Shown: positions 9,282-60,338 of the stretch, piece by piece
How positions within the stretch are numbered: position 1 is the first letter of the stretch
How the letters are laid out: each line of letters starts with the position of its first letter
Origin: Armatimonadota bacterium
GTDB taxonomy: Bacteria; Sysuimicrobiota; Sysuimicrobiia; Sysuimicrobiales; Humicultoraceae
DNA length: 64,000 nucleotides
Direction of reading: 5' to 3'
NCBI GenBank assembly: GCA_037443565.1
Contig: JBBIOB010000001.1
Coordinates: 97,774-161,773, forward strand
Translations under genes and position numbers: made by a program
The notes under the pieces: model-generated
Databases searched by the model: none
Told to the model about the DNA's origin: nothing
The model's input: the letters and a program-made list of their open reading frames with translations, nothing else

Positions 9282-9341
9282 GGGATCGCCTCCGGACGCA
9301 TCTGCACAGGATTTCCCTGCCTCGCGACGAACACCCTCCGC

Positions 9342-10205: not shown

Positions 10206-10216
10206 CGCCAGGCGTG

Positions 10217-11368: not shown

Positions 11369-11369
11369 C

Positions 11370-13070: not shown

Positions 13071-13091
13071 TGTCAGGTGGCGCGCAGCCCC

Positions 13092-15223: not shown

Positions 15224-16475
15224 TGCGCCGCTCCTGTGGTGGGCGCGCTCGCAGAGGACCCAGCGCCGCGATCCCGGCCAGCGGGCCCAGGGCCAGCAGG
15301 CCAAACGCCCAGCCCCACTGGCCCGAAGCACTGAACCCCAGCGTCTTGCCCAGATCCATCGCCAGGCCGGCCACCGCGGGCGACGCCGCGGTGGCCGCCC
15401 ATCCGAACAGCATCTGGACCGCAAACGCCCCGCCCAAGGAGCGGGGAGGCACCACCTCCATCAGCGCGGCAGTGTACGATGGGGAATCTGCCAGGCTGAC
15501 GGTACCGTAGGCCAGGGCGACCGCTGCGGTGAGCGCGATCGGCGCAGCCACAAGCCATCCAAAGGCCAGCGAGCAGACCAGGCTTGCGGTCAGCATGACG
15601 GTTGCCGCCCGCGCCCGGCCCAGGCGGTCCGAGAGCCGGCCGCCGGCAATCGCGCCGGTCGCGCCTCCCAGGCCAACCGCGCCCGCGGCCAGCAGGCCTC
15701 CCCACGCCAACGCGGCGCCTTCAGGATGCCCGTGGGCCGCGAGCGAGGCGACCATGAACGGTGCGAGCCAGCCCCATAGGCCGAACAACTCCCAGTTGTG
15801 GCCGGTATAGGCCACGATGACCCGACGCGCCGGGACATTCTTCAAGACATCGCCGAGATACCGCGAGAGGGTGGGCGGGCCCGCGGTCGCGGCTGCCGTC
15901 ACGCTGGGGACCCTCCAGGCCATGACGAGGGCGCCCAGTAACTCGAGCACGCCGATCGCGGCCATCGTGGCCCGCCAGCCGATCTGCGGCGCAAGCACGC
16001 CGACATAGAACAGCGGGATGGCGTACGCGGCGACGATTGTGGCGATGTAGATCCCGGTGGCCGCTCCCCGTCCTGCCGCGGGAACGGTGTCGGCAATCTG
16101 CTTCAGTGCCGGAAGGTAGAGGCCGCCGATGAGCACACCGACGAGCAGGCGCAATGCCAGTCCGGAGGCGAAGTCGCGCGCCGCCAGGGCGAAGAGGAGG
16201 TCGCCGAGCCCCACCAGCGCGGCCGACACCACCATGATCGGCTTGCTCCGCATCCGGTCGAGCAGGAAGCCCACGACCACATACGCGGCCAGCGTCCCCA
16301 GCTGAAAAGCCCCCAGGATGATCCCGGCCTGGCTGCTGCTCAGGTGCCACTCGGGCCCGACGACTGGGATGAGCACGGAGAAGGTGAGCCCGGTCTGGTG
16401 GGCCAGGAACTGTCCGATACAGAGGGTTACGAAGCCGGCGGTCCAGCCCCTCCGGCCCGCGGCGGCGTCAGCCAT
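15204..16475 (-). CDS. MFS transporter
   Basis: About 424 aa from the internal Met (MADAAAG...), 12 predicted TM helices, MFS motif region LLDRMRSKP. Its stop overlaps the PHP gene start; its start overlaps the kinase-like gene by 8 bp. Confidence 0.7.
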   Translation of the reverse strand: MADAAAGRRGWTAGFVTLCIGQFLAHQTGLTFSVLIPVVGPEWHLSSSQAGIILGAFQLGTLAAYVVVGFLLDRMRSKPIMVVSAALVGLGDLLFALAARDFASGLALRLLVGVLIGGLYLPALKQIADTVPAAGRGAATGIYIATIVAAYAIPLFYVGVLAPQIGWRATMAAIGVLELLGALVMAWRVPSVTAAATAGPPTLSRYLGDVLKNVPARRVIVAYTGHNWELFGLWGWLAPFMVASLAAHGHPEGAALAWGGLLAAGAVGLGGATGAIAGGRLSDRLGRARAATVMLTASLVCSLAFGWLVAAPIALTAAVALAYGTVSLADSPSYTAALMEVVPPRSLGGAFAVQMLFGWAATAASPAVAGLAMDLGKTLGFSASGQWGWAFGLLALGPLAGIAALGPLRARPPQERRNDVAQG

Positions 16476-17376
16476 TCCCGACCTGCACCAGGTACGCTCC
16501 CAGCCGGGGATCGCCGAGCGCGTCCCGGCAGCGGGCGAAGTGTACCGCGGCGTGCCCCGCGAACTCCGGGAGGGCCGCCGCCAGGTGTTGCGCCACAACG
16601 TACCACATCGCCTCGCGGAGCTCGGCGACGATCTTGAGGAGCCTCAGCCGGGCGAACGCGGCATCCGAGATCTCGCCGAAGTAGGTCCGCAGCAGCGCCT
16701 CATCGGTCTCGTCAGACGGCGAATGGTGAATGGCAAAGTTGGCCAGGTCGAAGAAGACGTCCCCATTCCCGGCGTACTCCCAGTCCACGATCCACGCCCG
16801 GCGGCCGTCATCGATCAGGTTGGGCCCCCAGAGATCGTTGTGACAGGGCCGGTGGGACACGCGGTCTGGGCGCATCGCCGACTCGATGCTGGACAGGGAC
16901 CGGTAGAGAGCGTCGATGTCTTGCGGGAGCGGGGTGTCGAGCCGGCGGGAGACCTCGCGATAGCCCTCCAGCGTCCTGAACGGCGAGAAGGATGTCTCGA
17001 AGGCCGCGCCCTGGTGGCACCGCCGGATCGCCCGGATCACGCGCTCGACCACCTCCGGTCCCGGCGTCTCGCCGGGCGCCAAGTGCCGACCATGGATGAA
17101 CCGCATGACCGACACTCCCAGCTCGGGCAGGAAGCAGACCACTTCCGGGCCGACGCCGGCCTGCCCGGCGGCCAGCGCGCAGCGGTACTCCCGATGGCGG
17201 TCGACGCCCAGCAGGGCGGCGTCCGCCGCGCAGATCCGGACGACGTACGCCTCACCGTCGACGTCGACCCGACAGCTGTAGTTGGTGATCCCGCCGGCCA
17301 GGGGCGAGATCGTCACCGCCTGGGCGTGCTTCCACAGCGGAATGTGGCTCAGCGCCTCGTCGATGGTGAGCGGCAT
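16468..17376 (-). CDS. Choline/ethanolamine kinase-like phosphotransferase, paralog 2
   Basis: 302 aa. HNDLWGPNLI (Brenner motif) and IVDWEYAGNGD. Alignable over the full length with 5817..6719 (LPGGITNLNYRV vs LAGGITNYSCRV; EAYVVRI in both). Confidence 0.7.
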   Translation of the reverse strand: MPLTIDEALSHIPLWKHAQAVTISPLAGGITNYSCRVDVDGEAYVVRICAADAALLGVDRHREYRCALAAGQAGVGPEVVCFLPELGVSVMRFIHGRHLAPGETPGPEVVERVIRAIRRCHQGAAFETSFSPFRTLEGYREVSRRLDTPLPQDIDALYRSLSSIESAMRPDRVSHRPCHNDLWGPNLIDDGRRAWIVDWEYAGNGDVFFDLANFAIHHSPSDETDEALLRTYFGEISDAAFARLRLLKIVAELREAMWYVVAQHLAAALPEFAGHAAVHFARCRDALGDPRLGAYLVQVGNG

Positions 17377-17402: not shown

Positions 17403-18188
17403 TTACGTCCCTGCCCGCCGCCGGAGGAACTCGGTCGACATGCCCAGGGCCACGGTGAGGACGATGAAGACGACCGAGATGGCGTTGATGGTGGGCGAGA
17501 GGCCGAGCCTCACCGTGGTGTAGATCTGAATCGGGAGCGTCGTGTCGTTCCCGATGAGGAAGAACGTGGTGTTGAAGTTGTCAAAAGAGAGCAGGAACGC
17601 GACGACGCACGCGGCCACGATGGCGGGACGCAGGTACGGCAGGGTGATGAGGAGCACGGCGCGCAGGGGCGTAGCCCCCAGATCCTGTGCCGCCTCTTCG
17701 AGCGAGCGGTCGAACTTCTGGAGGCGTGCCGAGGCGATGAGCAAGACGAACGACGCGATGAACGATGTCTGACCCAGCACCGCCGTCGGCAGACCGGCCC
17801 GCAGGCCCAGGCTGTCGAAGAAGATCAGCATCGATACCCCCAGGATGACGCCCGGGGTGACCAGCGGCGAGAGTACGAGGGCATAGAGGAGTCCTTTGCC
17901 GGGGAACCGGTACCGCACCAGCAGGAACGCGGTCGTCACACCCAGCGGAATCGAGAGGGCGACCACCGCCAGTCCGACGAGGACGCTGTTGCCCACCGCG
18001 CGGAGCAGCAGCGGGTCCTGGACGATCGCGGCGAACCACTGCAGGGTGAGCCCGCGCCAGGGGAACTGCGGCATGGCGCTGTCGTTGAAGGCGAGCGCGG
18101 CGACCACCGCCAGCGGCACATAGAGATACAGGAGGAAGATGCCCACGTAGAGCAGGGTGGTCACCCGGGCGAGCCACCGCGCCGTCAT
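17403..18188 (-). CDS. ABC permease (PotC/PotI-like)
   Basis: 262 aa from the ATG at 18188 (MTARWLARV...). Six TM helices and an EAA motif region (SLEEAAQDLGATPLR). Confidence 0.8.
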   Translation of the reverse strand: MTARWLARVTTLLYVGIFLLYLYVPLAVVAALAFNDSAMPQFPWRGLTLQWFAAIVQDPLLLRAVGNSVLVGLAVVALSIPLGVTTAFLLVRYRFPGKGLLYALVLSPLVTPGVILGVSMLIFFDSLGLRAGLPTAVLGQTSFIASFVLLIASARLQKFDRSLEEAAQDLGATPLRAVLLITLPYLRPAIVAACVVAFLLSFDNFNTTFFLIGNDTTLPIQIYTTVRLGLSPTINAISVVFIVLTVALGMSTEFLRRRAGT

Positions 18189-19063
18189 GGCGACTGGATC
18201 ACCCTGCGGACCGACAGGCCGAACAGCCGCAGGAGGCCGACCACGAAGAGCAGCGACAGGGCAAGCAGGATGAACGCGAACGCCGAACCGAGATTCCAGT
18301 TCAGCGCGTCGTAGAAGCGACGATAGATGAGCTCGACGAACCAGACCGCCCCGCGGCCCCCCAGGAACGAGGGGACGACAAAGGTCCCGACGCTCAACAT
18401 GAACACCATGATGCCGCCGGCGACCGCCCCGGGCACCACGTGCGGGAGGATGATATGGCGCAGCACCCGCAGGTGGCTGGCCCCCAGATCCTGCGCCGCC
18501 TCGATGAGCGAGGTGTCCAGGCTCTCCAGCACCGCGTACAACGGGAAGATCATGAACAGCATGTACGCGTAGGTCATCCCCAGGATGACCGTCCCATCGC
18601 GGTAGAGGTACGACACCGGCTCGCCGATAAGGCCCAGGGTCCCCAGGATCTGGTTGAACACGCCCTGCTCGGTCAGGATCAGCAGCCAGGCGTAGGTGCG
18701 GACGATCTCGTTGACCCAGAAGGGGATGAGGATGAGGATCAGCAGCCGCCGGCGCCACGACGTCGCGGCCACCTTGGCCAGAATGTACGCGATCGGAAAT
18801 GCGGCCACGAAGGACACCACGGTGACGGCCACGGCCGCGTACAGCGTCTTCACAAAGACTTTCCAGTACAACGGCGTGGTGAAGAAGGCGTGGTAATGGG
18901 TCAGCGTGTGCACGTCCACGGCCGTGCCGACCTGATCGTAGGGCAGCATGAAGCGCAGCGAGAGGTCCAGCATCTTGAGCTGGGGGATGACGAGCAGCAG
19001 GAGGACCCACAGGAGCGCGGGGATGCTGAGCACCGCCACCGCAGCTGCCGTCCGGCCGGACAT
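18185..19063 (-). CDS. ABC permease (PotB/PotH-like)
   Basis: 292 aa. EAA loop LIEAAQDLGASHLRV. 4-bp overlap with the downstream permease. Confidence 0.8.
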   Translation of the reverse strand: MSGRTAAAVAVLSIPALLWVLLLLVIPQLKMLDLSLRFMLPYDQVGTAVDVHTLTHYHAFFTTPLYWKVFVKTLYAAVAVTVVSFVAAFPIAYILAKVAATSWRRRLLILILIPFWVNEIVRTYAWLLILTEQGVFNQILGTLGLIGEPVSYLYRDGTVILGMTYAYMLFMIFPLYAVLESLDTSLIEAAQDLGASHLRVLRHIILPHVVPGAVAGGIMVFMLSVGTFVVPSFLGGRGAVWFVELIYRRFYDALNWNLGSAFAFILLALSLLFVVGLLRLFGLSVRRVIQSP

Positions 19064-20181
19064 CAGGGCTCTCCCTCGGGCAGGGCATAGGCGTCCTCGC
19101 TGGAGAACGTGACCGTCGCCGGTCCCCCCACCGCGGGCAGGACGGTAGTGCCCACATTCGGAACGACTACCGCCATCTGACGGCCGCTGGCTAGCCGCAC
19201 GCGCATCCGAACCACCGGCCCCTCGTAGAAGACCTCCTCAAGCGTCCCCCGCAGGGCGTTGGCGCCTCCGGGGGTCTCGACGCCGGGCTCGTTCCCTGCG
19301 ACACACCGCAGCTTCTCGGGGCGGACGAACACCAGGCCCTGACGGCCGGCCTCGAGCCGTTCGGGGTTCCGGCAGACCAGCCGGCCTTCGGGGGTCTCCA
19401 CGACGACGCGCCCGTCCTCGACCGCGACGGTCCGGCCCGCGATGGCGTTGTTCTCGCCGACGAAGTACGCGACGAACTGCGTCTGCGGCTGCTCATAGAT
19501 CTCCGCCGGCGTGCCGATCTGCTCGATGCGGCCGCGGCTCATCACCGCGACCCGGTCCGACATCGCCAGGGCTTCACCCTGGTCGTGCGTAATGTAGATG
19601 AACGTTGTGCCCACGCGGTGCTGGATGGCCTTGAGCTCTTCCTTCATGTGCTCGCGCAGCTTGAGGTCCAGGGCGCCCAGCGGCTCGTCGAGCAGCAGCA
19701 CGGTCGGCTCGATGATGAGCGACCGGGCGATGGCCACCCGCTGCTTCTCGCCCCCCGACAGCTCATCGACGCGCTTGCTCCCATACCCGGGAAGGTTGAT
19801 GAGGTCGAGCTTGGCCGCCACGCGTGTGGCGATCTCACGCTCGGACACCCCGCGCATCCGCAGGCCGAAGGCGATGTTGTCGTACACGTTCATCAGCGGG
19901 AAGAGGGCGAGGTGCTGGAAGATCAGGCTGGTGGGCCGGCGGTTGGGTGGCACGCCCCGCATCGGCCGGCCGCCGATCAGGATCTCCCCTTCGTCGGGAT
20001 CGATGAATCCCGAGATCATGCGGAGGATGGTGGTCTTGCCGCACCCGCTGGGGCCGAGGATCGAGAAGAACTCGCCTCGGCCCACGTCGAGCGCGACGCC
20101 GGCGACCGCCGTGATATCGTGGTAGCGCTTGGTGACGTTGACGAGCTCGACGTCGACGTCGCGCCGGTGGGGATCGCTCAC
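19063..20181 (-). CDS. ABC transporter ATP-binding protein (PotA-like)
   Basis: Walker A GPSGCGKTT, LSGGEKQRV, LLLDEP, ITHDQ. C-terminal TOBE-like domain. Confidence 0.85.
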   Translation of the reverse strand: MSDPHRRDVDVELVNVTKRYHDITAVAGVALDVGRGEFFSILGPSGCGKTTILRMISGFIDPDEGEILIGGRPMRGVPPNRRPTSLIFQHLALFPLMNVYDNIAFGLRMRGVSEREIATRVAAKLDLINLPGYGSKRVDELSGGEKQRVAIARSLIIEPTVLLLDEPLGALDLKLREHMKEELKAIQHRVGTTFIYITHDQGEALAMSDRVAVMSRGRIEQIGTPAEIYEQPQTQFVAYFVGENNAIAGRTVAVEDGRVVVETPEGRLVCRNPERLEAGRQGLVFVRPEKLRCVAGNEPGVETPGGANALRGTLEEVFYEGPVVRMRVRLASGRQMAVVVPNVGTTVLPAVGGPATVTFSSEDAYALPEGEP

Positions 20182-20232
20182 AGGACACCGGATGGGAACC
20201 GGGGAGGCGGCGGAGCCGCCTCCCCGGTGATA

Positions 20233-21426
20233 CTAGGCCGCCTTCAGCCGGTCCACGTACCCGGCGAACATATTCAGCCACCAGGTGTGCTCGATGCCGT
20301 ACCACCAGAGGTTCCTGATGTCCTCGGGCGTGAACGACTCCTCGTACTGCTTCTTGATCGCCGGATCGAGGTGCGCCGCGGCGCCGTCGATAGCCGTGAA
20401 GTAGCCGCTCTCTTTCGTGAACAACGCCGCGTTGCTCGGATCGTACATGAAGTTCATCCACGCGTAGGCGGCGTCGAGGTTCGTCGCGCCCCTGGGGATG
20501 GCGAAACCGTCCATCCAGGTCATGGCGCCTTCCTTGGGAGCCACGAACTTGATGTCATGCCCGGCGCGGTCGAGCTTCCAGCCGGTGCCGTCCCAGGTCT
20601 GCGCGATCCACACCTCTTCCGTGGTGAGGAGCTTCTCGATCTCAGCGGCCGTGGCCCAGTAGGTCTTCACGTTCTTCTTCTTGCTGATGAGGAAGGCGAG
20701 AATCCGGTCGAGGATCGGCCGGGCCCTCTCCTCGCTCACGTAGACGTCGCGCATGCGGTTCCCCAGCCCCATCCACAGGCCGGTCGAGACGAACACGTGG
20801 AAGGTCGCCCGATAGGCCACCCGCCCGGCGAACTGATCCTGGTGGACCGAGCCGTACGAAGTCGGCCGGCGGGGAATCCTGAAGGTGTTGTGGGAGATCC
20901 CTTCGGTGCCCCAGTCGAAGGGGAGCCCGTACCGTCTGCCCCTCGACATGCCGCCGAGGTCCTCGGAGGCCTTGACCATGCTGGGAATCAGGTTCCTGAA
21001 GTTGGGGATTCGCCGTTCGTCAACCGTCTGGTAGAGGTTGAAGTCGAGCGCGGCCGGAATCAAGGTGACCGAGGGCTGGACCAGATCGTAGCCGGTGGCG
21101 CGCGTGGCCCTGAGCTTGCTGATCAGCTCGCCGTTACTGGCGTAGTAGGTGACCCGCACACTGTAGCCGGTCTCCTGCTCGAACTTCCTGACCAGGGGGG
21201 TCGGCGCGTAGCCTTCCCAGGTGAACAGGTTCAGCGTCCTGGCCGGCGCGGACTGCACCCGCTCCGGCCACGCGAGCGTTCGGCCCAGCACCGCCGCCGC
21301 GCCCGAGGCCAGGCCGGCCTTGAGCACGGTCCGCCGGGAGAGCTTGGCTTCCAGAGATCTGGAGCCATAGATGCCATCGGACATGATCCCACCCCATTCC
21401 CGGATGAGCTGCCGTGCACCTGTCAA
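20233..21426 (-). CDS. Periplasmic polyamine/amine-binding protein (PotD/PotF family) with a Tat-type signal
   Basis: 397 aa; SRRTVLKAGLASGAAAVLG is twin-arginine-like; PotD/PotF-like fold length and composition. The true start may be the internal Met at about 21384. Confidence 0.7.
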   Translation of the reverse strand: MTGARQLIREWGGIMSDGIYGSRSLEAKLSRRTVLKAGLASGAAAVLGRTLAWPERVQSAPARTLNLFTWEGYAPTPLVRKFEQETGYSVRVTYYASNGELISKLRATRATGYDLVQPSVTLIPAALDFNLYQTVDERRIPNFRNLIPSMVKASEDLGGMSRGRRYGLPFDWGTEGISHNTFRIPRRPTSYGSVHQDQFAGRVAYRATFHVFVSTGLWMGLGNRMRDVYVSEERARPILDRILAFLISKKKNVKTYWATAAEIEKLLTTEEVWIAQTWDGTGWKLDRAGHDIKFVAPKEGAMTWMDGFAIPRGATNLDAAYAWMNFMYDPSNAALFTKESGYFTAIDGAAAHLDPAIKKQYEESFTPEDIRNLWWYGIEHTWWLNMFAGYVDRLKAA

Positions 21427-21483: not shown

Positions 21484-22158
21484 CTAGGCGCGGCCGGCCG
21501 CGCGCATCTGTTCGACGAACTGGATGGCCAGGTTTACCCCGTCCTGTGCCGTCTCGCCGTAGCCATCCGCCTGGATCTTCCGGCAGTAGGCCTCTGTGAC
21601 CGGCCCGCCACCGACCATGATCGTGTGTGTCTCGCGTATGCCGCGGGCATCGAAGAACTCGATCACCTCGCGCATCGACGGCATGGTCGTGGTCATGAGG
21701 GCTGAGAGCCCCACGATCTGGGCGCCGGTCTCCTCGGCCTTCTCCACGAACTTCCCGGGGTGCACGTTCACCCCAAGGTTGTGGACCTCGAAGCCCGCGA
21801 CCTTGAGCAGCGTCCCGAACAGGTCCTTGCCGATCGAGTGGACGTCGCCCTTGACGGTGCCGATCACGGCCACGCCGCGCTTCAGCCGGCCTTCACCCAT
21901 GGCCATGATGGCCGGTTCCAGGACCTTCATCGCCTCCAGGAAGACCTTGGCGGCCATCATCAGCTCGGGCAGAAAGATCTCCATCGCCTGGAACTTCTGG
22001 CCGATGATCGCGATGCCGCGCGACAGGCCGTCGTCGATGAGTTTCAGGGGAGGAATGCCCGCGTCCAGGCCCTTCTGGACCAGGCGCGCGCCCGCCTCGG
22101 CGTCGTAGTCGAGGACCGCCTCTCTCAGACCTTCGAGGATCGCTGCTTCATCACTCAT
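21484..22158 (-). CDS. Corrinoid (cobalamin)-binding protein of a methyltransferase system (MtmC/MttC/MetH B12-domain-like)
   Basis: 225 aa from the ATG at 22158. N-terminal four-helix cap plus a Rossmann B12-binding domain with a DxHxxG His-ligand motif (GDVHSIGKD) and GxxG loops. Confidence 0.75.
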   Translation of the reverse strand: MSDEAAILEGLREAVLDYDAEAGARLVQKGLDAGIPPLKLIDDGLSRGIAIIGQKFQAMEIFLPELMMAAKVFLEAMKVLEPAIMAMGEGRLKRGVAVIGTVKGDVHSIGKDLFGTLLKVAGFEVHNLGVNVHPGKFVEKAEETGAQIVGLSALMTTTMPSMREVIEFFDARGIRETHTIMVGGGPVTEAYCRKIQADGYGETAQDGVNLAIQFVEQMRAAGRA

Positions 22159-22175: not shown

Positions 22176-23549
22176 TTACCGGAGCGGCAGCCCGAGCCGT
22201 CGCAGATCTTCCTTGGCCTCGGCGTAGACAGCGTAGTGCTGCGGCGTAGGAGTCAGCGTGTCCAGATTGTAGCAGTCCTGGAACCGGTACCCTTCGGGCG
22301 GGTTGTCCAGGTGCGACTCGTACCGGGCGAGCAGCGTTGTGACGATCTCGTTGGCCTCCCGCCGGCCGAGCCCCGCGGCCGCGTGGGCTACCTCGCAGGC
22401 GAACCGCATCTCCATGGGGCTGTAGTTGTCCAACAGGACGCCCTTCGCCGGATGGACCGTCTCGATGTTGGCGCCCGAGACGACGTCGGTGATGATGCGG
22501 GCCGCGGTCTCGTCGTAGAGCTGCGGCGTGGCGGTGCCCGCGGCGGCGTACCCCAGGTCGAAGTACGGGAACCGCATGTTGCGGCTCACGGCCTGGCAAC
22601 CCAGGGCCACGCTGGTCAGCATCTCGCGCGCCGTGGAGTTGGACTGCTGGATGTGGAGCGAGTACAGTAGGTGGTAGGTGGCGCCGACCAACAGCGGCCC
22701 GGCCATGATGTACGCGGCATTGAGCACCGCCGAGCCGATCACCCCTCCGGCGAACCCGCCGTAGATGGCGCCGGCGGCGAACCCCACGTTGCCGCCGAAC
22801 GACAGGACGGCGGCCGTCTTGTTCATCACGTTGTAGTCCAGTTTCATCTCCGACAGTGACACGATCAACCATCCGTCGGAGGGGCGCAGGCCGTATTCGG
22901 AATTCGTGACGGCGAGCACCCCCATCGGCGAGGCCGAGCTGGAGAGCAGGTTGATGATCGGCAGGCCCGGCCTACCGGCGCGGCGCATGGACTCCCGCCC
23001 CAGGCGCACCGACTGGATGGCGGCGTAGATCTCCGACGGCGCGCCCGCCTGCACTGGCATCCCGCGAATCTGGGTCAGCGCCGGGATGCTCATGGAGTCG
23101 GCGTGCGGGATCCGCGCGTAGCCTTCCACCACGGCCGAGGCGATCTCGTCCGACGACACCGGGATGCCGCCGCCGACATGACACCAGGGAATCTGGGAGT
23201 CCTCGGGCCGGCGGGGCCGCATGAACTTCGCCTCTTTGCCTTCGCCCAGCGGACACTGCGTCGGCGCCAGGTGGATCGCCTCGTCGAGCTCTTCCCGCGA
23301 GAAGGTGATGACCCGGTTGGTGTCCGGGCAGTATGCGCCCGTCTCCACCAGGAAGTCGCCGGCGGCCAGAAAGATCCGATCGGCCAGATCGTCGTCCCAG
23401 GGGATGACGACATCCCTGGGTGGCGCGGTGAGCCCATGCTTCTTGATCGCCTTCTGGAGGTTTGGGACGAACCGCTGCATGTCGAAATCGTCGGGTGCGA
23501 CGATCGGTCCCATCGCCGCGCGCCGGCAGATCTCCAGGAAGCTCACCAT
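22176..23549 (-). CDS. MtmB-family methyltransferase (monomethylamine methyltransferase homolog) WITHOUT the pyrrolysine codon
   Basis: 457 aa, length matches archaeal MtmB (458 aa). Aligns by eye over the full length to M. barkeri MtmB: YCPDTNRVITFSREELDEAI vs YCTDTHRIVKYTEDEIWDAI; RRAGRPG vs AMAGRPG; C-terminus YRFQDCYNLDTLTPTPQHYAVYAEAKEDLRRLGL vs KTFQECYDVKTVTPTEEYMQVYDGARKKLEDLGL. At the Pyl position (MGV-O-GPE in MtmB) this protein reads LPIINLL with no in-frame TAG. RBS AAAGGAG lies 7 nt before the ATG at 23549. Confidence 0.8.
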   Translation of the reverse strand: MVSFLEICRRAAMGPIVAPDDFDMQRFVPNLQKAIKKHGLTAPPRDVVIPWDDDLADRIFLAAGDFLVETGAYCPDTNRVITFSREELDEAIHLAPTQCPLGEGKEAKFMRPRRPEDSQIPWCHVGGGIPVSSDEIASAVVEGYARIPHADSMSIPALTQIRGMPVQAGAPSEIYAAIQSVRLGRESMRRAGRPGLPIINLLSSSASPMGVLAVTNSEYGLRPSDGWLIVSLSEMKLDYNVMNKTAAVLSFGGNVGFAAGAIYGGFAGGVIGSAVLNAAYIMAGPLLVGATYHLLYSLHIQQSNSTAREMLTSVALGCQAVSRNMRFPYFDLGYAAAGTATPQLYDETAARIITDVVSGANIETVHPAKGVLLDNYSPMEMRFACEVAHAAAGLGRREANEIVTTLLARYESHLDNPPEGYRFQDCYNLDTLTPTPQHYAVYAEAKEDLRRLGLPLR

Positions 23550-23570: not shown

Positions 23571-24503
23571 TCAGGTGCGACGCCTGCGCACCGCCGCGGC
23601 GATGAGCCGGATGTGCTCGGGCGTGCTGCCGCAGCAGGCACCGACGATGTTGGCCCCGGCGTCGAGGATCGCGGGATACGCCCCTGCCATCGCCTGAGGC
23701 GACAGGTCGTACACGGTGCGATCGTCCACGATCTTGGGCATCCCGGCGTTGGGATACGCCGCCAGCCGGCCGGAGGTTACCCCCCGCATCTCCCGGATGA
23801 TGACCGCGGCGCGGACCGGACCGCCCTCCCCGCAGTTGCAGCCCACGATGTCCGCGCCCGCGTCGAACAGCAGCCGTGCGACGTCCGTCGGCGTCGAGCC
23901 CCACAGCGTCCGGTCTATGCCCTTCCGGGCGCTATACTGGAAGAACATCGTGGCCATCACGGGCAGGTCGGCGGCGGACTTCGCGGCCTTGATGGCGGTC
24001 ACGACCTCATCGGGGACCATCATCGTCTCCACGGCGAAGAGGTCTACGCCGCCCTCGGCCAGCGCAACGGCCTGCTCGGTGAAGTTGGCGCGCATCTCGT
24101 CCAGCGAGGTGTCGCCCATTGCCGCGAGCGTGTCGGGGAGATGCCCTGTCGGTCCGATCGACCCTGCCACGTACTTCCCCGGTGGGCAGACGGCGCGCGC
24201 CAGGCGCGCGGCCATGATGCTCAGGTCGCGCGCCCGTCCCTGCAGCTCGTAGGGCGCCAGCTTGAGGCGTGTGCCGCCGAACGTATTCGTCTCGACGATG
24301 TCGGCGCCGGCGTCGAAGTAGGCCCGGTGAATGCCGGAGACCACCTCGGGGTGGGTTTCGTTCCACAGCTCCGGGCAGGCGCCATCGACGAGGCCGGCCT
24401 CGAACAGCATCGTGCCCATGGCGCCGTCGAGGACCAGCACCTCGGAGGTCAACCGGTCGAGCAGCTCGCGCCCTCTCGGATGCATATCCCGTCCCTCACT
24501 CAA
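23571..24503 (-). CDS. Homocysteine/thiol S-methyltransferase domain protein (MetH Hcy-binding module as a separate protein)
   Basis: 310 aa. N-terminal VLVLDGAMGTML, zinc-ligand motifs GCNCG and GACCGSTPEHI as in the MetH/BHMT Hcy-binding barrel. Confidence 0.75.
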   Translation of the reverse strand: MSEGRDMHPRGRELLDRLTSEVLVLDGAMGTMLFEAGLVDGACPELWNETHPEVVSGIHRAYFDAGADIVETNTFGGTRLKLAPYELQGRARDLSIMAARLARAVCPPGKYVAGSIGPTGHLPDTLAAMGDTSLDEMRANFTEQAVALAEGGVDLFAVETMMVPDEVVTAIKAAKSAADLPVMATMFFQYSARKGIDRTLWGSTPTDVARLLFDAGADIVGCNCGEGGPVRAAVIIREMRGVTSGRLAAYPNAGMPKIVDDRTVYDLSPQAMAGAYPAILDAGANIVGACCGSTPEHIRLIAAAVRRRRT

Positions 24504-26355
24504 ACCGTAACGCCGTCAGAAACGCGTCCTGGAACTCAGGATGCGTTGCCAGCGAAACGTGTCTGATCTGTCCGGCCAGCGCGTCGGCGCGCCGGCGCTC
24601 GGTCTCGGAGACCAGGGCCATCTGCGCGCCCAGGCCCGCGGCGTTGCCGACGTAGCTCACGCGGTCGGCCGGCATCCGCGGGATGAGGCCGATTCGAATC
24701 GCGCTGCGGATGTTCAGGTAGTTGCCGAATCCGCCGGCCAGCATCAGCTCCGCGAGGTGATCCGCGGGTGTGCCGCTCAGGCGCTGCAGCATCGCGAGCC
24801 CGCTTCGGATCGCGCCCTTGGCGAGCTGCACCTGGCGGATGTCCGCCTGCGTCAGGACGATGTCCCTGCCCGTGGCGCTCTGGGACCCGGGCGCCAGGAC
24901 AAACGCTGGGAGCCCGTCGGGCAATGTGATGATGCGGCGGCGCAGCGCGTCAGGCACGGCTCCGGACGGCTCGGGGTGCAGCCGGCCTGTGGCGTCCACG
25001 ACCCCCGCGTCGAGCAGGCCGGCGATCGCATCGAGGATCCCCGAGCCACACACCCCCAGGGGTGATCCCGCGCCGATCACGTGGGAATCCACATCCTGCT
25101 CGATGCGGACCTGATCGATGGCGCCCCGGGCGGCGCGCATGCCGCACTGGAGCTGTGCACCTTCCAGCGCGGGTCCCGCAGGAGCCGAGCAGGCCGTCAG
25201 GCCGTCCGTGGACGCGAGGACCATCTCGCCGTTCGTGCCGATGTCCACGGCGATCCGGGGTTCGCGGCTCTCGTCGAGCCGGGTGGACAGGACCATGCCC
25301 ACGGCATCCGCGCCCACGAAGCCCGCCACGATGGGCAGCAGGAAGATGGGCGTCGGCGGACGCAGGCGCAGCCCCACCTCGGCGGCGGTGACTTTGACGC
25401 TCCGCCGGACGGCGGGCGCATACGGCGCCTGACCGACATAGGTGGGGTCGATGCCCAGGAAGAGGTGATGCATCACCGTGTTCCCCACGACGACGCCCTT
25501 GTAGATACGATCGCGATCGACGCCGGCCCTGGCGCACGCGTCCTCGATCTGCTCGTTCAGCATCCGGATGATACGGGTGTGGAGCTGACGAACGTTCGAT
25601 GGGCCTTCCTGCGCGAAGGCGATCCGTGACATCAGGTCGCCGCCGAAGGCCGCCTGAGCGTTGAGGCCGGATGCGGTGGCCGCCACGACCCCGCTCGCCA
25701 GATCCACCAGATACCCGACAACCGTCGTCGTGCCGATGTCAAAGGCGATGCCGTAGGCCTCGGCACGAGTGTCCCCGGGTTCGGCGGCCAGCAGCGTGCG
25801 GTTGAAGCGCGCCAGGGTGAAGCCGGCGGGCTGCGATCGCAGCAGCAACGGGATGCGCCGGAGCGCCTCGAGGGACGCGTCGGCCACCTCCCCCTCGAGG
25901 CGGCGCAGCACCGCTTCCAGGTCCGAGTCGGGGCGATCCTCGTCGGACGGTGGCAACGCGGTGACGAACATCTTGTGCACACCTGAATCCAGGGTGAACC
26001 CCGCCGCCGAGCGCAGCGTCCGGGTCTCGGCCAGGATCTGAAACGCGGTCTCTTCGAAGATCGGCGCGGCCGCGACCGTCAGATCGCCCCAGGCTTCGGT
26101 CTGGCAGGCCAGGCGGTAGCGCTCTCTTACCTCGTCGTCGCCGAGTTGGATCCGGTCGGCCAGCCCGGCCGGCGGCGGGTTTCCGGCGACGATCTGCACC
26201 CGGCAGCTCCGGCAGCGGCCGCGCGCCCCGCAGGTCGCCACGATCTCGCACCCAGCCTGCTGCGCCGCCTGGAGGATCGTCGTGCCCACGGGCACATGCA
26301 CCCGGTATCCGTTGGGCGCAAACACGACGGTGACCGTGGTGCCGGTCATGGCCAT
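24496..26355 (-). CDS. RamA/RACo-like reductive activator of corrinoid proteins (N-terminal 2Fe-2S ferredoxin plus ASKHA ATPase domain)
   Basis: 619 aa. N-terminal plant-type ferredoxin motif CGARGRCRSCRV, then a large actin-like ATPase region (DIGTTTV..., DIGTNGE...) as in COG3894 activators. Confidence 0.7.
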   Translation of the reverse strand: MAMTGTTVTVVFAPNGYRVHVPVGTTILQAAQQAGCEIVATCGARGRCRSCRVQIVAGNPPPAGLADRIQLGDDEVRERYRLACQTEAWGDLTVAAAPIFEETAFQILAETRTLRSAAGFTLDSGVHKMFVTALPPSDEDRPDSDLEAVLRRLEGEVADASLEALRRIPLLLRSQPAGFTLARFNRTLLAAEPGDTRAEAYGIAFDIGTTTVVGYLVDLASGVVAATASGLNAQAAFGGDLMSRIAFAQEGPSNVRQLHTRIIRMLNEQIEDACARAGVDRDRIYKGVVVGNTVMHHLFLGIDPTYVGQAPYAPAVRRSVKVTAAEVGLRLRPPTPIFLLPIVAGFVGADAVGMVLSTRLDESREPRIAVDIGTNGEMVLASTDGLTACSAPAGPALEGAQLQCGMRAARGAIDQVRIEQDVDSHVIGAGSPLGVCGSGILDAIAGLLDAGVVDATGRLHPEPSGAVPDALRRRIITLPDGLPAFVLAPGSQSATGRDIVLTQADIRQVQLAKGAIRSGLAMLQRLSGTPADHLAELMLAGGFGNYLNIRSAIRIGLIPRMPADRVSYVGNAAGLGAQMALVSETERRRADALAGQIRHVSLATHPEFQDAFLTALRFE

Positions 26356-26379: not shown

Positions 26380-27009
26380 TCAGGCATCAGCACGGGAGGC
26401 CGGGATCAGGCCGTAGATCCCGGTGATGGACTTCCGCGGCAGCATCACACATGACTCGGTCAGGTGCACCGACAGGTCGCCGCCTGCAAACGTCGAGAAC
26501 AACACTCGCTGCTGGTCCAGGGGCCAGTCCGCAAAGCCCGGCGCTGTGCGCCCGGTCAGGCGTAGCCCGCGTGCGGCGGCCTCGGCCCGCAGCCTGTCCC
26601 GCAGCTGCCCGGTCAGCGCCTCCAGCGCGACCCATCCCGCTGTGTCGAGCAGTAGCCCGTCGGCGAATTGTTCCTCCGCAATCAACGCCTGTACGCGGCC
26701 TTCCAGCGCCGGTCCAATGGTCAGGATGACGAGCACGGCCTCAGTGGCGTCATGGAGGAGCCGTGCCAGGGCGCGGCTGGTGAACTCGGTCCCGTCGGCC
26801 AGGCGCACGCAGCCGTCGGGTTCGGCGCGGCTCACCGGTTCCCGCCGCATCCACCCGCGCGGCACCACCAGCGCCTCGGCCAGCGATGCCATCCGGCGCG
26901 CCGTCTCACTGACGACCGGGGCGATCCTGTCAAGATCCCGGTACTTCTGCAGCCGCAGGATGAGATCCGGATCCACGCGCGGCCGTTGGAGGTCCAGATT
27001 CTCGACCAT
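26380..27009 (-). CDS. Methionine synthase reactivation (AdoMet-binding) domain homolog, standalone
   Basis: 209 aa. C-terminal APGFADWPLDQQRVLF...LTESCVMLPRKSITGIYGL parallels E. coli MetH RPAPGYPACPEH...LTESFAMWPGASVSGWYF. Confidence 0.6.
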   Translation of the reverse strand: MVENLDLQRPRVDPDLILRLQKYRDLDRIAPVVSETARRMASLAEALVVPRGWMRREPVSRAEPDGCVRLADGTEFTSRALARLLHDATEAVLVILTIGPALEGRVQALIAEEQFADGLLLDTAGWVALEALTGQLRDRLRAEAAARGLRLTGRTAPGFADWPLDQQRVLFSTFAGGDLSVHLTESCVMLPRKSITGIYGLIPASRADA

Positions 27010-27012: not shown

Positions 27013-27888
27013 TCAGCCTGACGACCGCGGGCCTCCTCCTGCCGCTCTGGCCGCCGGCGGCGTCTTCATGAAGTCTAACGTCCCGGCGCGCACGCCGGCC
27101 AGGTAGCGGCGGCAGAACTCGTCCTGCCCTAGCAGCATCTGGGCCGTGGTCAGGTTGGCCATCAGCCTCCGGTCGAGCGGATCGAGGATGAACGCGTCCA
27201 TGCCGTGCGCCATACACAGGACGAGGAACACCTGATTGATCTGGGCGCGATAGGGCAGCCCGAACGAGACGTTGCTGAGCCCGCAGATCGTCCGCACCTC
27301 GGGAAACCGCGCCTTGATCAGGTCCAGCGCCCCCAGGAAGACCACGGCAGACCGGCTGTCCGTCGCGATGGGGAACAGCAGCGGGTCGACGAGGATGTCG
27401 TGCGGCGGCACCCCGACCGCGGTGAGGCCATCGATCAGCCTGGACGCGAACTCCAGCTTGCCCGCGGCCGTGGACGGAATCCCCTGGTCGTCCATGCACA
27501 GGGCCACGACCTCCGGCTGGAACTCCTGGATCACCGGCAGGAGGGCCGCCCACCGGTCCTGCTCCAGGTTGATCGAGTCCAGCAGGGCCTTGCCCCGGTG
27601 CACCTCGAGGCCCCGGCGCAGCGCGATCGGGTTGGGGCTGTCGATGCTGATCCGCACGTCGAGGGCGTCCTGGATGGTCCGCACGGCCCACTCCATGCAC
27701 GCGACCTCGTCCTCCATCAACGTCGCGCAGTTGACATCCACCAGGTGCGCGCCGGCCTCGACCTGCCGCCGGGCGAGATCGACGATGGCTGCGGCATCGC
27801 GGGCTTCCAGCAGCGGCTGGATCTGCTTGCGGGTGGAGTTGATGAGCTCGCCGACGATCAGCGTGGCCGGTCCTCCGGATGTCTTCCA
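27013..27888 (-). CDS. Methyltetrahydrofolate:corrinoid methyltransferase (pterin-binding MeTr/MtrH/MetH folate module); start codon unresolved
   Basis: TLIVGELINSTRKQIQ...EAGAHLVDVN is the canonical pterin-binding (DHPS-like) barrel N-terminus. No ATG/GTG/TTG lies in frame between the upstream gene stop (27858) and the domain start. The only in-frame starts are over 150 nt upstream, inside the MetF-MetV gene. GGAGGA plus a 9-nt spacer precedes a CTG at about 27864. Confidence 0.6.
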   Translation of the reverse strand, partial: WKTSGGPATLIVGELINSTRKQIQPLLEARDAAAIVDLARRQVEAGAHLVDVNCATLMEDEVACMEWAVRTIQDALDVRISIDSPNPIALRRGLEVHRGKALLDSINLEQDRWAALLPVIQEFQPEVVALCMDDQGIPSTAAGKLEFASRLIDGLTAVGVPPHDILVDPLLFPIATDSRSAVVFLGALDLIKARFPEVRTICGLSNVSFGLPYRAQINQVFLVLCMAHGMDAFILDPLDRRLMANLTTAQMLLGQDEFCRRYLAGVRAGTLDFMKTPPAARAAGGGPRSSG

Positions 27889-29444
27889 GACACCATTTCC
27901 AACCTCACCAGTCGCATGCCTCCTCCTTGGAAGTGGGTGACCCAGGAGCAGGTGTTCCGGCTCTCTTCGGGGACCGGAGGGATCAAGACCTCTTCCAGGT
28001 CGGCCAGCCGGCCGGCCTTCCTGGACAGACGGTAGATCCCGTTGTGGATGCACTCCCGATCGCCGAACTCGCAGATGCCGTCGTGCGTGCCGCCGCACGG
28101 TCCGTTCGCCAGTCCCTTCGGACAGGTCTCCGGGCAGACGTACGCGGTGGCCGGGAGCCGGCAGGAGCCGCACCCCCGGCAGCCGACCAGCGGGCGTTTG
28201 ATCGCCAGCTCAAGCATGAGCAGGAACCCGTCCGACCCGAACCGGGCGCCGAGCCCCCGGACCAAAGGCCCCACCACGCGCGCGCCCGGTGAGCCGTCGT
28301 GGAAGGCGAGACGGTCGACCAGGTCCAGCGCGCGGAACCGCAGCGACTCGCCGAGTCTTGGGCCGATATTGCCGTCGAGCGTGCCCGCATCCAGGTACAG
28401 ACCGTGCTCGGGCGCGACCTGCGCCTGCCGGTCATCGGCGAATGTCAGCGCCCGCCGCCAGGCCCTCTGCCAGTCCTCGAGGGTCGGGCATTCCGTCGCG
28501 ACGCCGTCGACCGTGTCGAGCAGCCGGGCGACCTTCGAATAGGTGTGAAGGCCGCTGATCTGCGCCCCGGCATAGCCCATCAGACGCGCGCCCACCACCT
28601 GCAGCGCCAGACGTCGGTACGCCGCATCCCGGCCACTGTCGGGCGCGCGCGACTCTTCCTCGAGCTTCTCGGCCAGGTCATTGGTGATCGTCACGCCGGG
28701 CAGGCCCACCTGACGGATGCGACGGCACCGGCCGGGCGTGAGGAAGAGCAATCCCGCCAGTAGCGGGGCGGGATATCCCCGGCCGGCGAGGACCCGGCGC
28801 GCCTCCTCAAGCTTGCACATGTCCCAGCCGATCTGCGTGACCAGGAAGTCGGCGCCCGCCCGCAGCTTCTTGCCTGCCTTGAGGTACTGATTCAGCAGGT
28901 CTTCTTCACGGTACTTGAATGGACAGACCGCCGCGGCCAGAAGACAGGCGCCGGAGTGCTGTCGGGCGGCCCGAAGGGCGTGCACCGAGTCCAGATACCG
29001 CACCGGCCGGTCGGCGGGCGGCGCCTTCAGGCCGTCTCCGGTGACGAGCAGGAACGTGTCGAGCCCCAGCGCTCCGGCCCGCCGCAGGTGCTCCTCCAGG
29101 TTGTGCAGGCTGCGATCCTTGCCGGCCAGGTGGACGATCGGCATCGCACCGGAGACCTCCAGGACCCTGTGGCCGATCGCGACCGGATCGTGGTCGTGGT
29201 CGGATCGGCTGCGGTCGGTCAGGGCGAGCGCGGCGATCCTGGGGTCACCTCGGATCGCCTTTGCCAGGGCAAGGATGGGCGCCACGGCGCCGTCGAAGGG
29301 CTCGCTCGCCACCGGCGACGCGTACTCGATCGTGATCGCGAACCGGCCGGCGGCCAGCGCCGCGCACAAGCGGTGGGTGCCCGCCTGCCGGAGCACGTCG
29401 CTCATCTGGGACGTAACGTACGGAGGGGGCGATACCCGGGGCAA
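27858..29444 (-). CDS. Methylenetetrahydrofolate reductase MetF domain fused to an MTHFR C-terminal (MetV-like, Cys-rich) domain
   Basis: 528 aa. N-terminal FAITIEYASP and the MTHFR barrel. C-terminal CRGCGSCRLPATAYVCPETCPKGLANGPCGG is the MetV-type zinc-ribbon domain. The start may be the internal Met at 29402. Confidence 0.7.
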   Translation of the reverse strand: MPRVSPPPYVTSQMSDVLRQAGTHRLCAALAAGRFAITIEYASPVASEPFDGAVAPILALAKAIRGDPRIAALALTDRSRSDHDHDPVAIGHRVLEVSGAMPIVHLAGKDRSLHNLEEHLRRAGALGLDTFLLVTGDGLKAPPADRPVRYLDSVHALRAARQHSGACLLAAAVCPFKYREEDLLNQYLKAGKKLRAGADFLVTQIGWDMCKLEEARRVLAGRGYPAPLLAGLLFLTPGRCRRIRQVGLPGVTITNDLAEKLEEESRAPDSGRDAAYRRLALQVVGARLMGYAGAQISGLHTYSKVARLLDTVDGVATECPTLEDWQRAWRRALTFADDRQAQVAPEHGLYLDAGTLDGNIGPRLGESLRFRALDLVDRLAFHDGSPGARVVGPLVRGLGARFGSDGFLLMLELAIKRPLVGCRGCGSCRLPATAYVCPETCPKGLANGPCGGTHDGICEFGDRECIHNGIYRLSRKAGRLADLEEVLIPPVPEESRNTCSWVTHFQGGGMRLVRLEMVSGRHPEDRPR

Positions 29445-30725: not shown

Positions 30726-30880
30726 GAACTGGCAGCATCGTACCACATCTCCGCGCCCATCTGCCCGGCCCGGGGACACCTGGCGGCGCCCCCGGTCCCT
30801 TGGACGGGCTATTGTTGCGGCGCGCGGCCTCCCTGTACAGTGGGGTGGGTCGAAGGAGTAGACGACGCAGAGGAGGATCC

Positions 30881-33328: not shown

Positions 33329-33334
33329 CGGTCC

Positions 33335-39015: not shown

Positions 39016-39023
39016 CGAGCGCT

Positions 39024-41857: not shown

Positions 41858-41935
41858 GGTAAAGGCGCCAGCCCCCGTCCTGACGACACCCGAGACGGGG
41901 GCTGGCCGGTGCATCTCACCCGACTGCCCGGTCGA

Positions 41936-42988: not shown

Positions 42989-43105
42989 AGATACCCTCCC
43001 CCTCTGGATCGAGCCGTCTGGCGATTGCAGTAGCCGGTAGTATTCATCAGGATCCTGTCGAGTCCTTGTGCACCTTTCCCGCCGCCCGGCACCCCAGGCC
43101 GGCGG

Positions 43106-60242: not shown

Positions 60243-60338
60243 AGAGGGGGTACCATCACCGCTTTCGCGGCACCCCCGATGAATTGGACATGGACGGCAG
60301 GTGACACGGGGCAGGATCCGATGGCTCGCCAGGAGGCA

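Follow-up and report, generated by a model that had tools for sequence, protein, structure and literature searches.

What does a bacterium that is no methanogen do with a full-length relative of the archaeal monomethylamine methyltransferase MtmB in which pyrrolysine (Pyl) is missing? The question is raised by a gene at positions 22176-23549 of a 64,000-nucleotide stretch (hereafter the window) of contig JBBIOB010000001.1 (positions 97,774 to 161,773, forward strand, assembly GCA_037443565.1), which comes from an Armatimonadota bacterium placed by GTDB in the Sysuimicrobiota. An original prediction, made from the letters alone, had taken the product of this gene for an MtmB homolog devoid of Pyl, surrounded by a full set of corrinoid partners and probably acting on an amine with a single N-methyl group. 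The analysis reported here confirms the focal protein as a genuine full-length non-Pyl member of the MtmB family and assigns to it, with a probability of about 0.85, the role of first methyltransferase (MT1) of a cobalamin-dependent system. In this role, it would draw on an N-methyl ammonium donor to methylate its corrinoid protein, from which the methyl group would pass on to tetrahydrofolate (THF) or homocysteine. The surroundings of the gene favour a choline- or phosphonate-type trimethylammonium compound as this donor and not a simple methylamine, in line with the earlier opinion that methylamine itself is an unlikely substrate.

The open reading frame (ORF) lies on the minus strand, runs over 1374 nt from ATG to TAA, codes for 457 amino acids and contains no internal stop codon of any kind. 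Its product matches the MtmB profile PF05369 with 290.6 bits (cutoff 25; E 2.7e-86), residues 5-454 covering positions 4-450 of the 450 in the profile, and residues 9-454 align with residues 14-456 of the 458-residue MtmB of Methanosarcina barkeri (1L2Q/1NTH; E 1.6e-56). An AlphaFold model computed from a 32-sequence alignment (pLDDT 93.8, pTM 0.94) was superposed by Foldseek on 1NTH with a TM-score of 0.95 and a root-mean-square deviation of 1.4 Å over 453 columns at 30% identity, whereas MttB, the next-best family, reached a TM-score of only 0.53. The match to MtmB is far beyond chance. In the alignment with the crystal structure, a check that the original prediction had proposed, the Pyl of MtmB (X202 in GMGVXGPE) falls opposite Ile199 of the focal protein, which is encoded by ATC and lies within GLPIINLLSS. 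The end-to-end alignment at nearly identical length (457 versus 458 residues) and the reading LPIINLL without an in-frame amber codon were accordingly reported correctly at the outset. Two trivial explanations were rejected: an ordinary Pyl-containing MtmB with an overlooked amber codon, since the ORF is free of stops and the codon at the Pyl position is ATC, and a likeness confined to the generic TIM-barrel, since the match is full-length and the TM-score of 0.95 to 1NTH stands against 0.53 for the next family. No NCBIfam model names the protein.

The gene belongs to a series of seven minus-strand genes that run from 29444 down to 21484 with spacings of -8 to 24 nt and code, in this order, for a methylenetetrahydrofolate reductase (MTHFR), a pterin-binding methyltransferase, a protein of 209 amino acids (aa), a RACo activase, a homocysteine methyltransferase (Hcy-MT), the MtmB-like protein and a corrinoid protein (Table 1). 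All parts of a split methionine synthase (PF00809, PF02607 + PF02310, PF02574, the RACo domains and PF02219) are thereby found in one array, and the full partner set that had been announced is indeed adjacent, namely the corrinoid protein, RACo and two methyl-acceptor methyltransferases. The cofactor motifs are intact, with DxHxxG in the corrinoid protein, GCNCG and GACCG in Hcy-MT and the 2Fe-2S cysteines in RACo. The corrinoid protein scores below the cutoffs of TIGR02370 and of MtgC-like models and is conserved at 76-92% beside the MtmB-like gene in orthologous loci. Among the window ORFs scanned, neither PF06253 (the MttB superfamily) nor PF01208 (the URO-D family of MtbA-type coenzyme M methyltransferases) was found, the MT1 being of PF05369 and its partners of PF00809 and PF02574; DUF1638 was not detected in the window. 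What is new here is the presence of an MtmB-family MT1 in a complete and contiguous split methionine synthase, as well as the coupling of this array to flavin-dependent demethylases and kinases in an uncultivated phylum.

One gene of the array has an uncertain start. The pterin-binding gene covers positions 2-243 of PF00809 only if it is read from 27855, where no ATG, GTG or TTG is present. It starts MGGSATLIVGELINS with an ATG in the orthologs of loci L009 and L010, versus '...TSGGPATLIVGELINS' in the window (27741-27860, minus strand), and the nearest in-frame starts are at 27741, at a cost of about 38 aa of the domain, or at 28053, with an overlap of about 195 nt with the MTHFR gene. The cause may be a non-canonical start or translational coupling, but also a variant or an error in the sequence.

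The family to which the focal protein belongs is large. A word-indexed search gave 280 scored homologs, and the best 120 of these, used for annotation and for reading the Pyl column, were all full-length PF05369 proteins from bacterial metagenome-assembled genomes (MAGs), with hosts annotated as Firmicutes, Planctomycetota, Spirochaetota, Gammaproteobacteria and Anaerolineales and with M, I, L, G, V, F, A or N in the Pyl column. An exhaustive HMMER search of 1.84 billion cluster representatives returned 965 clusters at E <= 1e-3 and 203 at E <= 1e-30; there, the focal clade forms a single 50% cluster with its next relative at 44%, and relatives beyond the clade are at most 51% identical to the focal protein. 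The same list contains representatives of about 200-260 aa that end or start at query residues 198-208 (for example P0225, P0226 and P0239; P0168 and P0227), which is consistent with Pyl-MtmB genes split at UAG during gene calling; unlike these, the focal gene reads through the site near residue 200. A scan of a genome collection found five close orthologs, and the nearest genomes are hot-spring MAGs of Ca. Fervidifonticultor (91% identity; candidate phylum Sysuimicrobiota/CSP1-3).

Conservation was assessed by local tblastn across 92 related loci drawn from exact-protein look-ups, the genome collection and a metagenome collection, from which a close clade (84-94% identity, 13 loci) and a distant tier (41-51% identity, 32 loci) were defined, both counted over loci of at least 8 kb. 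In the close clade, the corrinoid protein, Hcy-MT and RACo are each present in 12 of the 13 loci, whereas the 209-aa protein occurs in 11 and a dimethylglycine dehydrogenase (DMGDH)-like gene in 10. In the distant tier, the corrinoid protein persists in 25 of the 32 loci, and Hcy-MT, RACo and DMGDH-like genes are found in none; for this reason, the pair formed by the MT1 and the corrinoid protein is the functional core, to which the methionine-synthase modules and the flavoenzymes are clade-specific additions. The nearest outgroup loci (49-51% identity) keep a class-III pyridoxal phosphate (PLP) enzyme without DMGDH-like genes. Three or four MtmB paralogs stand in tandem in L039 (20.8 kb) and L059 (1736-7316), with Pyl-column motifs such as LPIMNLIST, LPILNLISS, LPIMNLVSA and LPIMNLNST, and an MtmB homolog of L073 near position 8541 (44% identity, LPILNLIST) shows an in-frame stop in its tblastn translation, which could be the mark of a pseudogene, a sequencing error or a recoded codon.

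Both the enzyme class and the operon architecture have already been described, and neither is categorically new. The premise of the original prediction, that all non-Pyl methyltransferases for quaternary amines belong to the MttB family and that a non-Pyl MtmB with a corrinoid partner set had escaped characterisation, has been overtaken because MtqB of Methanococcoides methylutens Q3c, a non-Pyl MtmB homolog, methylates cob(I)alamin from choline and tetramethylammonium and has trace activity on monomethylamine (Kashyap et al., 2026; PMC13044021). According to the same study, non-Pyl MtmBs have been known for many years, and most members of a 1,061-member tree of the family have no assigned function (PMC13044021). 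MtqB establishes quaternary amines as substrates for the family, and its clade is marked by a conserved Met/Cys/aromatic pocket signature. Judged by its published description, it shares with the focal protein the absence of Pyl and a dedicated corrinoid protein; on the other hand, it is archaeal, hands its methyl groups to coenzyme M via MtbA/MtqA and belongs to a clade reported to branch near the Pyl-MtmBs (PMC13044021), whereas Hcy-MT, the pterin-binding methyltransferase, RACo, the DMGDH-like enzymes and the kinases are the partners in the focal clade. MtmB of M. barkeri has in common with the focal protein PF05369, length, TIM-barrel fold and an adjacent cognate corrinoid protein, and differs by its UAG-encoded Pyl, its URO-D-family coenzyme M methyltransferase in place of THF- and homocysteine-type acceptors, and its methanogenic host.

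The architecture of the array finds its closest counterpart in the aerobe Ruegeria pomeroyi, in which a split methionine synthase composed of MtgD (pterin), MtgC (cobalamin), MtgE (PF02574), RamA and MetF2 doubles as a glycine betaine demethylase by means of the MttB-family protein MtgB (Mausz et al., 2025; PMC12478193). The modular design is the same in this host, which is neither an acetogen nor a methanogen, but its MT1 is of PF06253 and its genes are scattered, whereas the focal MT1 is of PF05369 and its modules form one tight operon, in which a 209-aa protein with faint likeness to the MetH activation domain is present instead of DUF1638. A second precedent is provided by Eubacterium limosum, in which the choline kinase MthK produces phosphocholine, the sole substrate of the MttB-family protein MthB; in many genomes, genes for the kinase and the MT1 are found together (Jiang et al., 2025; PMC12155760). 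A kinase gene co-localised with genes for an MT1, a corrinoid protein and a pterin-binding methyltransferase is common to MthK/MthB/MthC/MthA and the window, and the logic of the E. limosum system is to give the quaternary amine an acidic group, by phosphorylation of the amino alcohol, prior to its demethylation (PMC12155760). The differences are that MthB belongs to the MttB family, that MthK is described as resembling serine kinases and has 19% identity to LicA, the window kinases being of the APH/choline-kinase family, and that E. limosum stops at dimethylaminoethanol whereas the two DMGDH-type enzymes of the window could complete the demethylation.

Membership in the family, the fold, the lack of Pyl and the conserved partner genes are observed; the direction of methyl flow, the nature of the substrate and every step past the first demethylation are inferred. 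In the TIM-barrel cleft, an N-methylated ammonium compound would be bound and one of its methyl groups passed on to the Co(I) cofactor of the neighbouring corrinoid protein. The pterin-binding enzyme would then transfer the methyl group from methyl-Co(III) to THF, giving CH3-THF, which the MTHFR would oxidise into the one-carbon (C1) pool, or else the PF02574 enzyme would transfer it to homocysteine, giving methionine, while the RACo activase would re-reduce accidentally oxidised Co(II).

The predicted active site gives a first indication of the donor. In the alignment, residues E205, E229, E259 and Q333 of MtmB correspond to S, L, A and L in the focal protein, and these replacements are invariant across its clade. 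Glycines G198, G265/G266 and G339, as well as H294 and Y335 (MtmB numbering), are kept, and clade-specific aromatic residues (W227, F257, Y263, F266, Y292, F330 and Y334, focal numbering) are found at or just after predicted strand ends. The barrel and its glycine scaffold are thus retained, with the acidic surroundings that handle Pyl apparently rebuilt as hydrophobic and aromatic ones, and the aromatic set is as would be expected of a cation-pi cage for trimethylammonium or another preformed quaternary ammonium group. The likeness to MtmB extends beyond the fold, yet the predicted catalytic pocket is not of the methylamine-enzyme type. A trimethylammonium donor is favoured because acidic residues near the Pyl position are replaced by hydrophobic or aromatic ones, because such a donor needs no activation by Pyl, because all characterised non-Pyl precedents use quaternary amines, and because one corrinoid step followed by two DMGDH-type steps would account for exactly three methyl groups.

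Within this class of compounds, the substrate would be of the choline type, with a quaternary 2-(trimethylammonio)ethyl group; the leading candidate, tentatively and at less than even odds, is phosphocholine, which is favoured by the conserved kinases, the MthK/MthB precedent and the choline activity of MtqB. Phosphocholine could be made from imported choline by these kinases, of which the two that had been announced as choline-kinase-like enzymes were recovered as choline/ethanolamine-kinase-family genes (Table 1) and of which the first, with its MFS transporter gene, directly follows the corrinoid gene in L009 and L012, or could be taken up as such by an organophosphate-type ABC system. The dimethyl product would lose its two remaining methyl groups to THF via the two DMGDH-type flavoenzymes, which would leave an aminoethyl compound for the class-III PLP enzyme and an aldehyde dehydrogenase to act on. 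These flavoenzymes are the pair that had been read as sarcosine/dimethylglycine dehydrogenase paralogs, and both have the DAO + FAO_M + GCV_T architecture expected of them; together with the class-III PLP gene (30800-37109, plus strand) they are divergent to the core operon.

Several points weigh against phosphocholine. Both kinases score best against GntI-type kinases, below every curated cutoff, and the class-III PLP enzyme is glutamate-1-semialdehyde (GSA)-aminomutase-like and not phosphoethanolamine-phospho-lyase-like. The adjacent binding protein is of the polyamine type (PotD/PotF) and no known choline binder. The pocket is described from alignment columns and predicted strand ends, and MtmB residues E205, E229, E259 and Q333 are those that we take to surround Pyl, a placement for which the literature search gave no confirmation. 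Finally, aminophosphonate genes in the window and in many related loci favour an alternative donor.

This alternative, by itself rather unlikely but the most probable of the competing readings, is an N-methylated 2-aminoethylphosphonate (AEP), most probably N,N,N-trimethyl-AEP (M3AEP or TMAEP), which is isosteric with phosphocholine and is favoured by phosphonate genes in the window and across the family. The MtmB-like enzyme would take its first methyl group and the two DMGDH-type flavoenzymes the next two, and the resulting AEP would enter the PhnW route encoded 14 kb away, hydroxylated analogues being processed via PbfA. A set for the utilisation of AEP and its hydroxylated form (HAEP) is indeed present in the window, with PhnW, a PhnS2-type ABC importer and an aldehyde dehydrogenase (37888-44572, minus strand), and a LysR regulator with PbfA (47229-49696, plus strand); PhnW, PhnS2 and PbfA are above their cutoffs, but in other operons, 14-25 kb from the MtmB-like gene. 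PhnX, PhnA and PhnY were not found in the window at curated cutoffs, which leaves the C-P bond-cleaving step there without a candidate. Nor does a phosphonate pathway have any use for the conserved kinases. In the close clade, PhnW, PhnX and PbfA occur within 10 kb in none of the 13 loci.

The transporters bear on both donors. The PotD-like importer noted at the outset is real, as its binding protein (20233-21426) matches PotF and PotD in the PDB, but its value as a clue to the substrate has to be reduced because it is kept in just two orthologous loci (L002 and L024), whereas a PhnS2/AfuA-like organophosphate-type system recurs across the family. The latter is encoded 8 kb from the MtmB-like gene in the same co-directional array, is found inside the MtmB operon in L022 and L027 (84%-identical orthologs), and stands beside MtmB homologs in about 16 distant loci. 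The scores of PhnS2-like binding proteins stay under the curated cutoff, that of importer 2 of the window (Table 1) reaching 265 bits for TIGR03261 with a cutoff of 393. The closest solved relatives of this protein are 8X1A, 4R72-75, which we take to be the sugar-phosphate binder AfuA, and the pyridoxal-phosphate binder 6WCE, and these relatives fit a phosphate- or phosphonate-bearing ligand.

Across the family, the association with aminophosphonate genes is direct in a number of loci. In L008, the order is MtmB, PhnX (341 bits versus 220), MtmB, PhnW (546 versus 401), MttB, a major facilitator superfamily (MFS) transporter, a corrinoid protein, MtmB and a pterin-binding protein; in L003 and L079, PhnW and PhnX lie directly 5' of MtmB homologs and a corrinoid protein. 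Bona fide PbfA adjoins MtmB homologs in L007, L059, L075 and L083, as does PhnW in L075 and L091. Altogether, 8 of the 32 distant loci contain PhnW, PhnX or PbfA, a raw count with no genomic background control; phn and pbf genes being generally rare, such a proportion would amount to a strong enrichment. The count rises to 16 of 32 when PhnS2-like binding proteins are included and to 19 of 32 when orthologs of the class-III enzyme (57-64% identity) are added. In at least 10 loci, two class-III enzymes, one of the PRK06062 type and one GSA-aminomutase-like, share a recurrent operon with a PhnS2-like ABC importer, an MtmB homolog and a corrinoid protein. The Pyl-column motif gave no clean signature that would separate phosphonate-linked from other homologs. 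Two further observations can be added. A recurrent operon is seen in sediment and freshwater metagenomes (L032, L038, L040, L050, L051, L055, L061, L066 and L089, e.g., L061:734-12068). In L008:10001-21365, L079:1264-6959 and L003:2754-12307, PhnW and PhnX are interleaved on one strand with two to three MtmB paralogs, an MttB homolog and a corrinoid protein, an arrangement that suggests a stepwise corrinoid-dependent demethylation feeding the phosphonatase pathway.

Such a route would fill a gap, as N-methyl-AEP is not a substrate of PhnW and the sole known pathway for M3AEP consists of two oxygenases (Zangelmi et al., 2023; PMC10590968). Hydrolytic AEP catabolism by PhnW, PhnX, PhnA and PhnY with the accessory enzymes PbfA and PbfB/C/D (PMC10590968, PMC8154272) shares with the loci described here PhnW, PhnS2 and PbfA in the window and PhnW, PhnX or PbfA beside MtmB homologs in eight other loci; it differs in that N-methyl-AEP is handled by FAD oxidases releasing methylamine, with no corrinoid step described. 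The literature searched contained neither a link of MtmB or MttB homologs to methylated aminophosphonates nor a description of corrinoid-dependent demethylation of methylated AEPs. It is possible, although still doubtful, that non-Pyl MtmB homologs, often together with MttB homologs, are the missing cobalamin-dependent N-demethylases of mono-, di- and trimethylated AEP (M1-, M2- and M3-AEP) and their hydroxylated forms, yielding AEP or HAEP for PhnW, PhnX and PbfA, the window clade being a hybrid with one corrinoid step, two flavin/THF steps and a split methionine synthase. If true, this would provide an oxygen-independent route for phosphonates beyond the reach of PhnW. Phosphocholine and trimethyl-AEP may also both be correct donors, in different clades.

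The substrate proposed originally, a secondary amine (for example sarcosine, N-methylethanolamine or an N-methyl polyamine) that would lose its only N-methyl group without the help of Pyl, now appears improbable. The adjacent PotD/PotF-like binding protein, the trace activity of MtqB on monomethylamine (PMC13044021) and the two to four MtmB paralogs of L039, L059 and L008, which suggest that some members may act on partly demethylated amines, speak for it. Against it, methyl transfer to Co(I) depends on a good leaving group, the characterised non-Pyl enzymes are all users of quaternary amines, and Pyl is thought, in the established view, to activate simple methylamines (PMC13044021). Moreover, the PotD-like transporter is not conserved with the gene, the acidic residues are replaced, and secondary and tertiary N-methyl groups are already covered by the two DMGDH and sarcosine dehydrogenase (SARDH)-type enzymes, which fit the second and third methyl groups and would make a corrinoid enzyme superfluous for them.

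Slightly less probable still is glycine betaine, for which the MtmB-like protein would be a functional analogue of MtgB, the two flavoenzymes converting dimethylglycine to glycine and the methyl group passing to THF or homocysteine. The DMGDH/SARDH architecture of the two DAO + GCV_T paralogs, a split-methionine-synthase layout equal to that of the betaine system of R. pomeroyi (PMC12478193) and the resemblance of the PF02574 partner to BHMT-type enzymes are in agreement with such a function. The importers are PotD- and PhnS2-like, no ProX/OpuA/BCCT-type transporter having been seen in the window; the kinases, MFS transporter, PHP hydrolase, class-III PLP enzyme and aldehyde dehydrogenases would have no role in betaine catabolism; the outgroup loci have the class-III PLP enzyme but no DMGDH-like genes; and every MT1 known to act on betaine is of the MttB family. 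It is very improbable that the cluster is essentially a methionine synthase (CH3-THF to corrinoid to homocysteine) in which the MtmB-like protein would be catalytically unimportant, regulatory or a reverse methyl-acceptor site, for although all three MetH modules and reactivation are present, Hcy-MT is strictly co-conserved and the shared modules are essential for methionine synthesis in Ruegeria (PMC12478193), the MtmB-like gene is strongly conserved (84-94% identity across many samples) and always paired with its own corrinoid protein, Hcy-MT being absent from all 32 distant loci.

The locus offers a self-contained operon (importer, kinase, MT1, corrinoid protein, two acceptors and activase) that makes it tractable for finding a second substrate in a family where one of several hundred non-Pyl MtmB sequence clusters has an assigned function. 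The focal clade would show how the MtmB pocket is rebuilt once Pyl has been lost or was never acquired. The split methionine synthase with a donor module, so far seen with MttB-type enzymes in marine Alphaproteobacteria, is now also found with one of the MtmB type, in a hot-spring phylum without cultivated members. The family-wide link to aminophosphonates is the more novel by-product and can be tested with compounds already synthesised; this embedding could explain an oxygenase-free mineralisation of N-methylated phosphonates, and possibly of phosphocholine, and would link the C1, phosphorus and methionine cycles.

Table 1. Coordinates of the features annotated in the window (ABC, ATP-binding cassette; TAT, twin-arginine translocation).
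Feature	Position	Strand	Basis and conservation
Choline/ethanolamine-kinase-family kinase 2 (paralog)	5817-6719	+	GntI-like 272 bits, below cutoff; 72% ortholog in L002
Aldehyde dehydrogenase, end of co-directional array	7815-9320	-	PF00171; no NCBIfam equivalog reached
ABC importer 2: PhnS2/AfuA-like organophosphate-type binding protein (13092-14117), fused permease, ATPase	10217-14117	-	TIGR03261
PHP-domain CehA/McbA-family metallohydrolase (putative phosphoesterase)	14324-15220	-	Homologs beside MtmB homologs in L003, L006, L079
MFS transporter, conserved with kinase	15204-16475	-	PF07690; 71-78% identity in L002, L009, L011, L012
Choline/ethanolamine-kinase-family (APH) kinase 1	16468-17376	-	PF01636 + PF01633; GntI-like below cutoff; PDB 3DXQ, LicA 4R77
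ABC importer 1: PotD/PotF-like binding protein with TAT signal (20233-21426), ATPase (19063-20181), two permeases	17403-21426	-	
Cognate corrinoid protein, B12-binding_2 cap + B12-binding domain	21484-22158	-	PF02607 + PF02310; DVHSIG = DxHxxG at residue 105
Non-Pyl MtmB-family methyltransferase, MT1 (predicted substrate:corrinoid methyltransferase)	22176-23549	-	PF05369 2.7e-86; 1L2Q E 1.6e-56; TM 0.95 to 1NTH; Ile199 ATC
Homocysteine-binding-type methyltransferase, MT2a (MetH module 3/MtgE-like)	23571-24503	-	PF02574 1.4e-68; Zn-ligand-type GCNCG, GACCG
RACo/RamA-type ATP-dependent reductive activase (2Fe-2S + ASKHA)	24496-26355	-	PF00111, PF17650, PF17651, PF14574; AcsV/RamA below cutoff
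Conserved 209-aa protein, faint MetH activation-domain likeness	26380-27009	-	PF02965 E 2.3e-4, below cutoff; 55-71% identity in orthologous loci
Pterin-binding methyltransferase, MT2b (methylcorrinoid:THF, MtgD/MthA-like); start uncertain	27013-27855	-	PF00809 profile 2-243
Methylenetetrahydrofolate reductase, MetF2-like	27858-29444	-	PF02219 + PF12225; would oxidise CH3-THF
LuxR/GerE-type regulator, upstream of operon	29475-30779	-	PF00196; 56-65% identity in L009, L010, L012, L013
DMGDH/SARDH-type flavoenzyme 1 (DAO + FAO_M + GCV_T + GCV_T_C), predicted THF-dependent oxidative N-demethylase	30800-33328	+	79-83% orthologs in L002, L010, L013
Class-III PLP enzyme (GSA-aminomutase-like), between both flavoenzymes	33335-34657	+	57-64% orthologs beside MtmB homologs in 11 distant loci
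DMGDH/SARDH-type flavoenzyme 2 (DAO + FAO_M + GCV_T)	34647-37109	+	DMGDH-like gene in 10/13 close-clade loci
PhnW, 2-aminoethylphosphonate:pyruvate transaminase	37888-39303	-	NF010006 548 bits > 296; TIGR02326 497 > 401; match from ORF residue 100
ABC importer 3 with bona fide PhnS2 binding protein (41936-42988)	39024-42988	-	TIGR03261 446 > 393
Aldehyde dehydrogenase heading PhnS2-PhnW operon (candidate PhnY-like)	43106-44572	-	PF00171; all NCBIfam equivalogs below cutoff
LysR + PbfA	47229-49696	+	NF049939 717 bits > 525

A few minor observations concern the rest of the window. Long spurious ORFs are typical of a genome of 68-70% GC, and ORF lengths overstate gene lengths: the ORF of the first aldehyde dehydrogenase (7815-10262, minus strand) is open over 815 aa with a Pfam domain at residues 352-811 only, and an antisense ORF of 780 aa (7863-10205, plus strand) overlaps it. 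A protein of 285 aa with a citrate-synthase C-terminal domain adjoins the A and B subunits of a CoA-transferase (44576-47162, minus strand); L032, L055 and L091 also have CitSynC-like genes close to MtmB homologs, to which L032 adds a CoA-transferase B-like gene. A 458-aa protein (3669-5045, minus strand) joins an N-terminal part resembling cytochrome bd subunit I to a C-terminal c-type cytochrome resembling cbb3 subunit III, which is an unusual fusion. At the other end of the window, a WYL/WCX-domain regulator precedes a type I-G Cas3 (TIGR02621, 667 bits > 400; 59304-63220, plus strand), and the GC content falls from about 0.69 to 0.63 over 60-64 kb, which may correspond to the edge of a CRISPR-Cas island.

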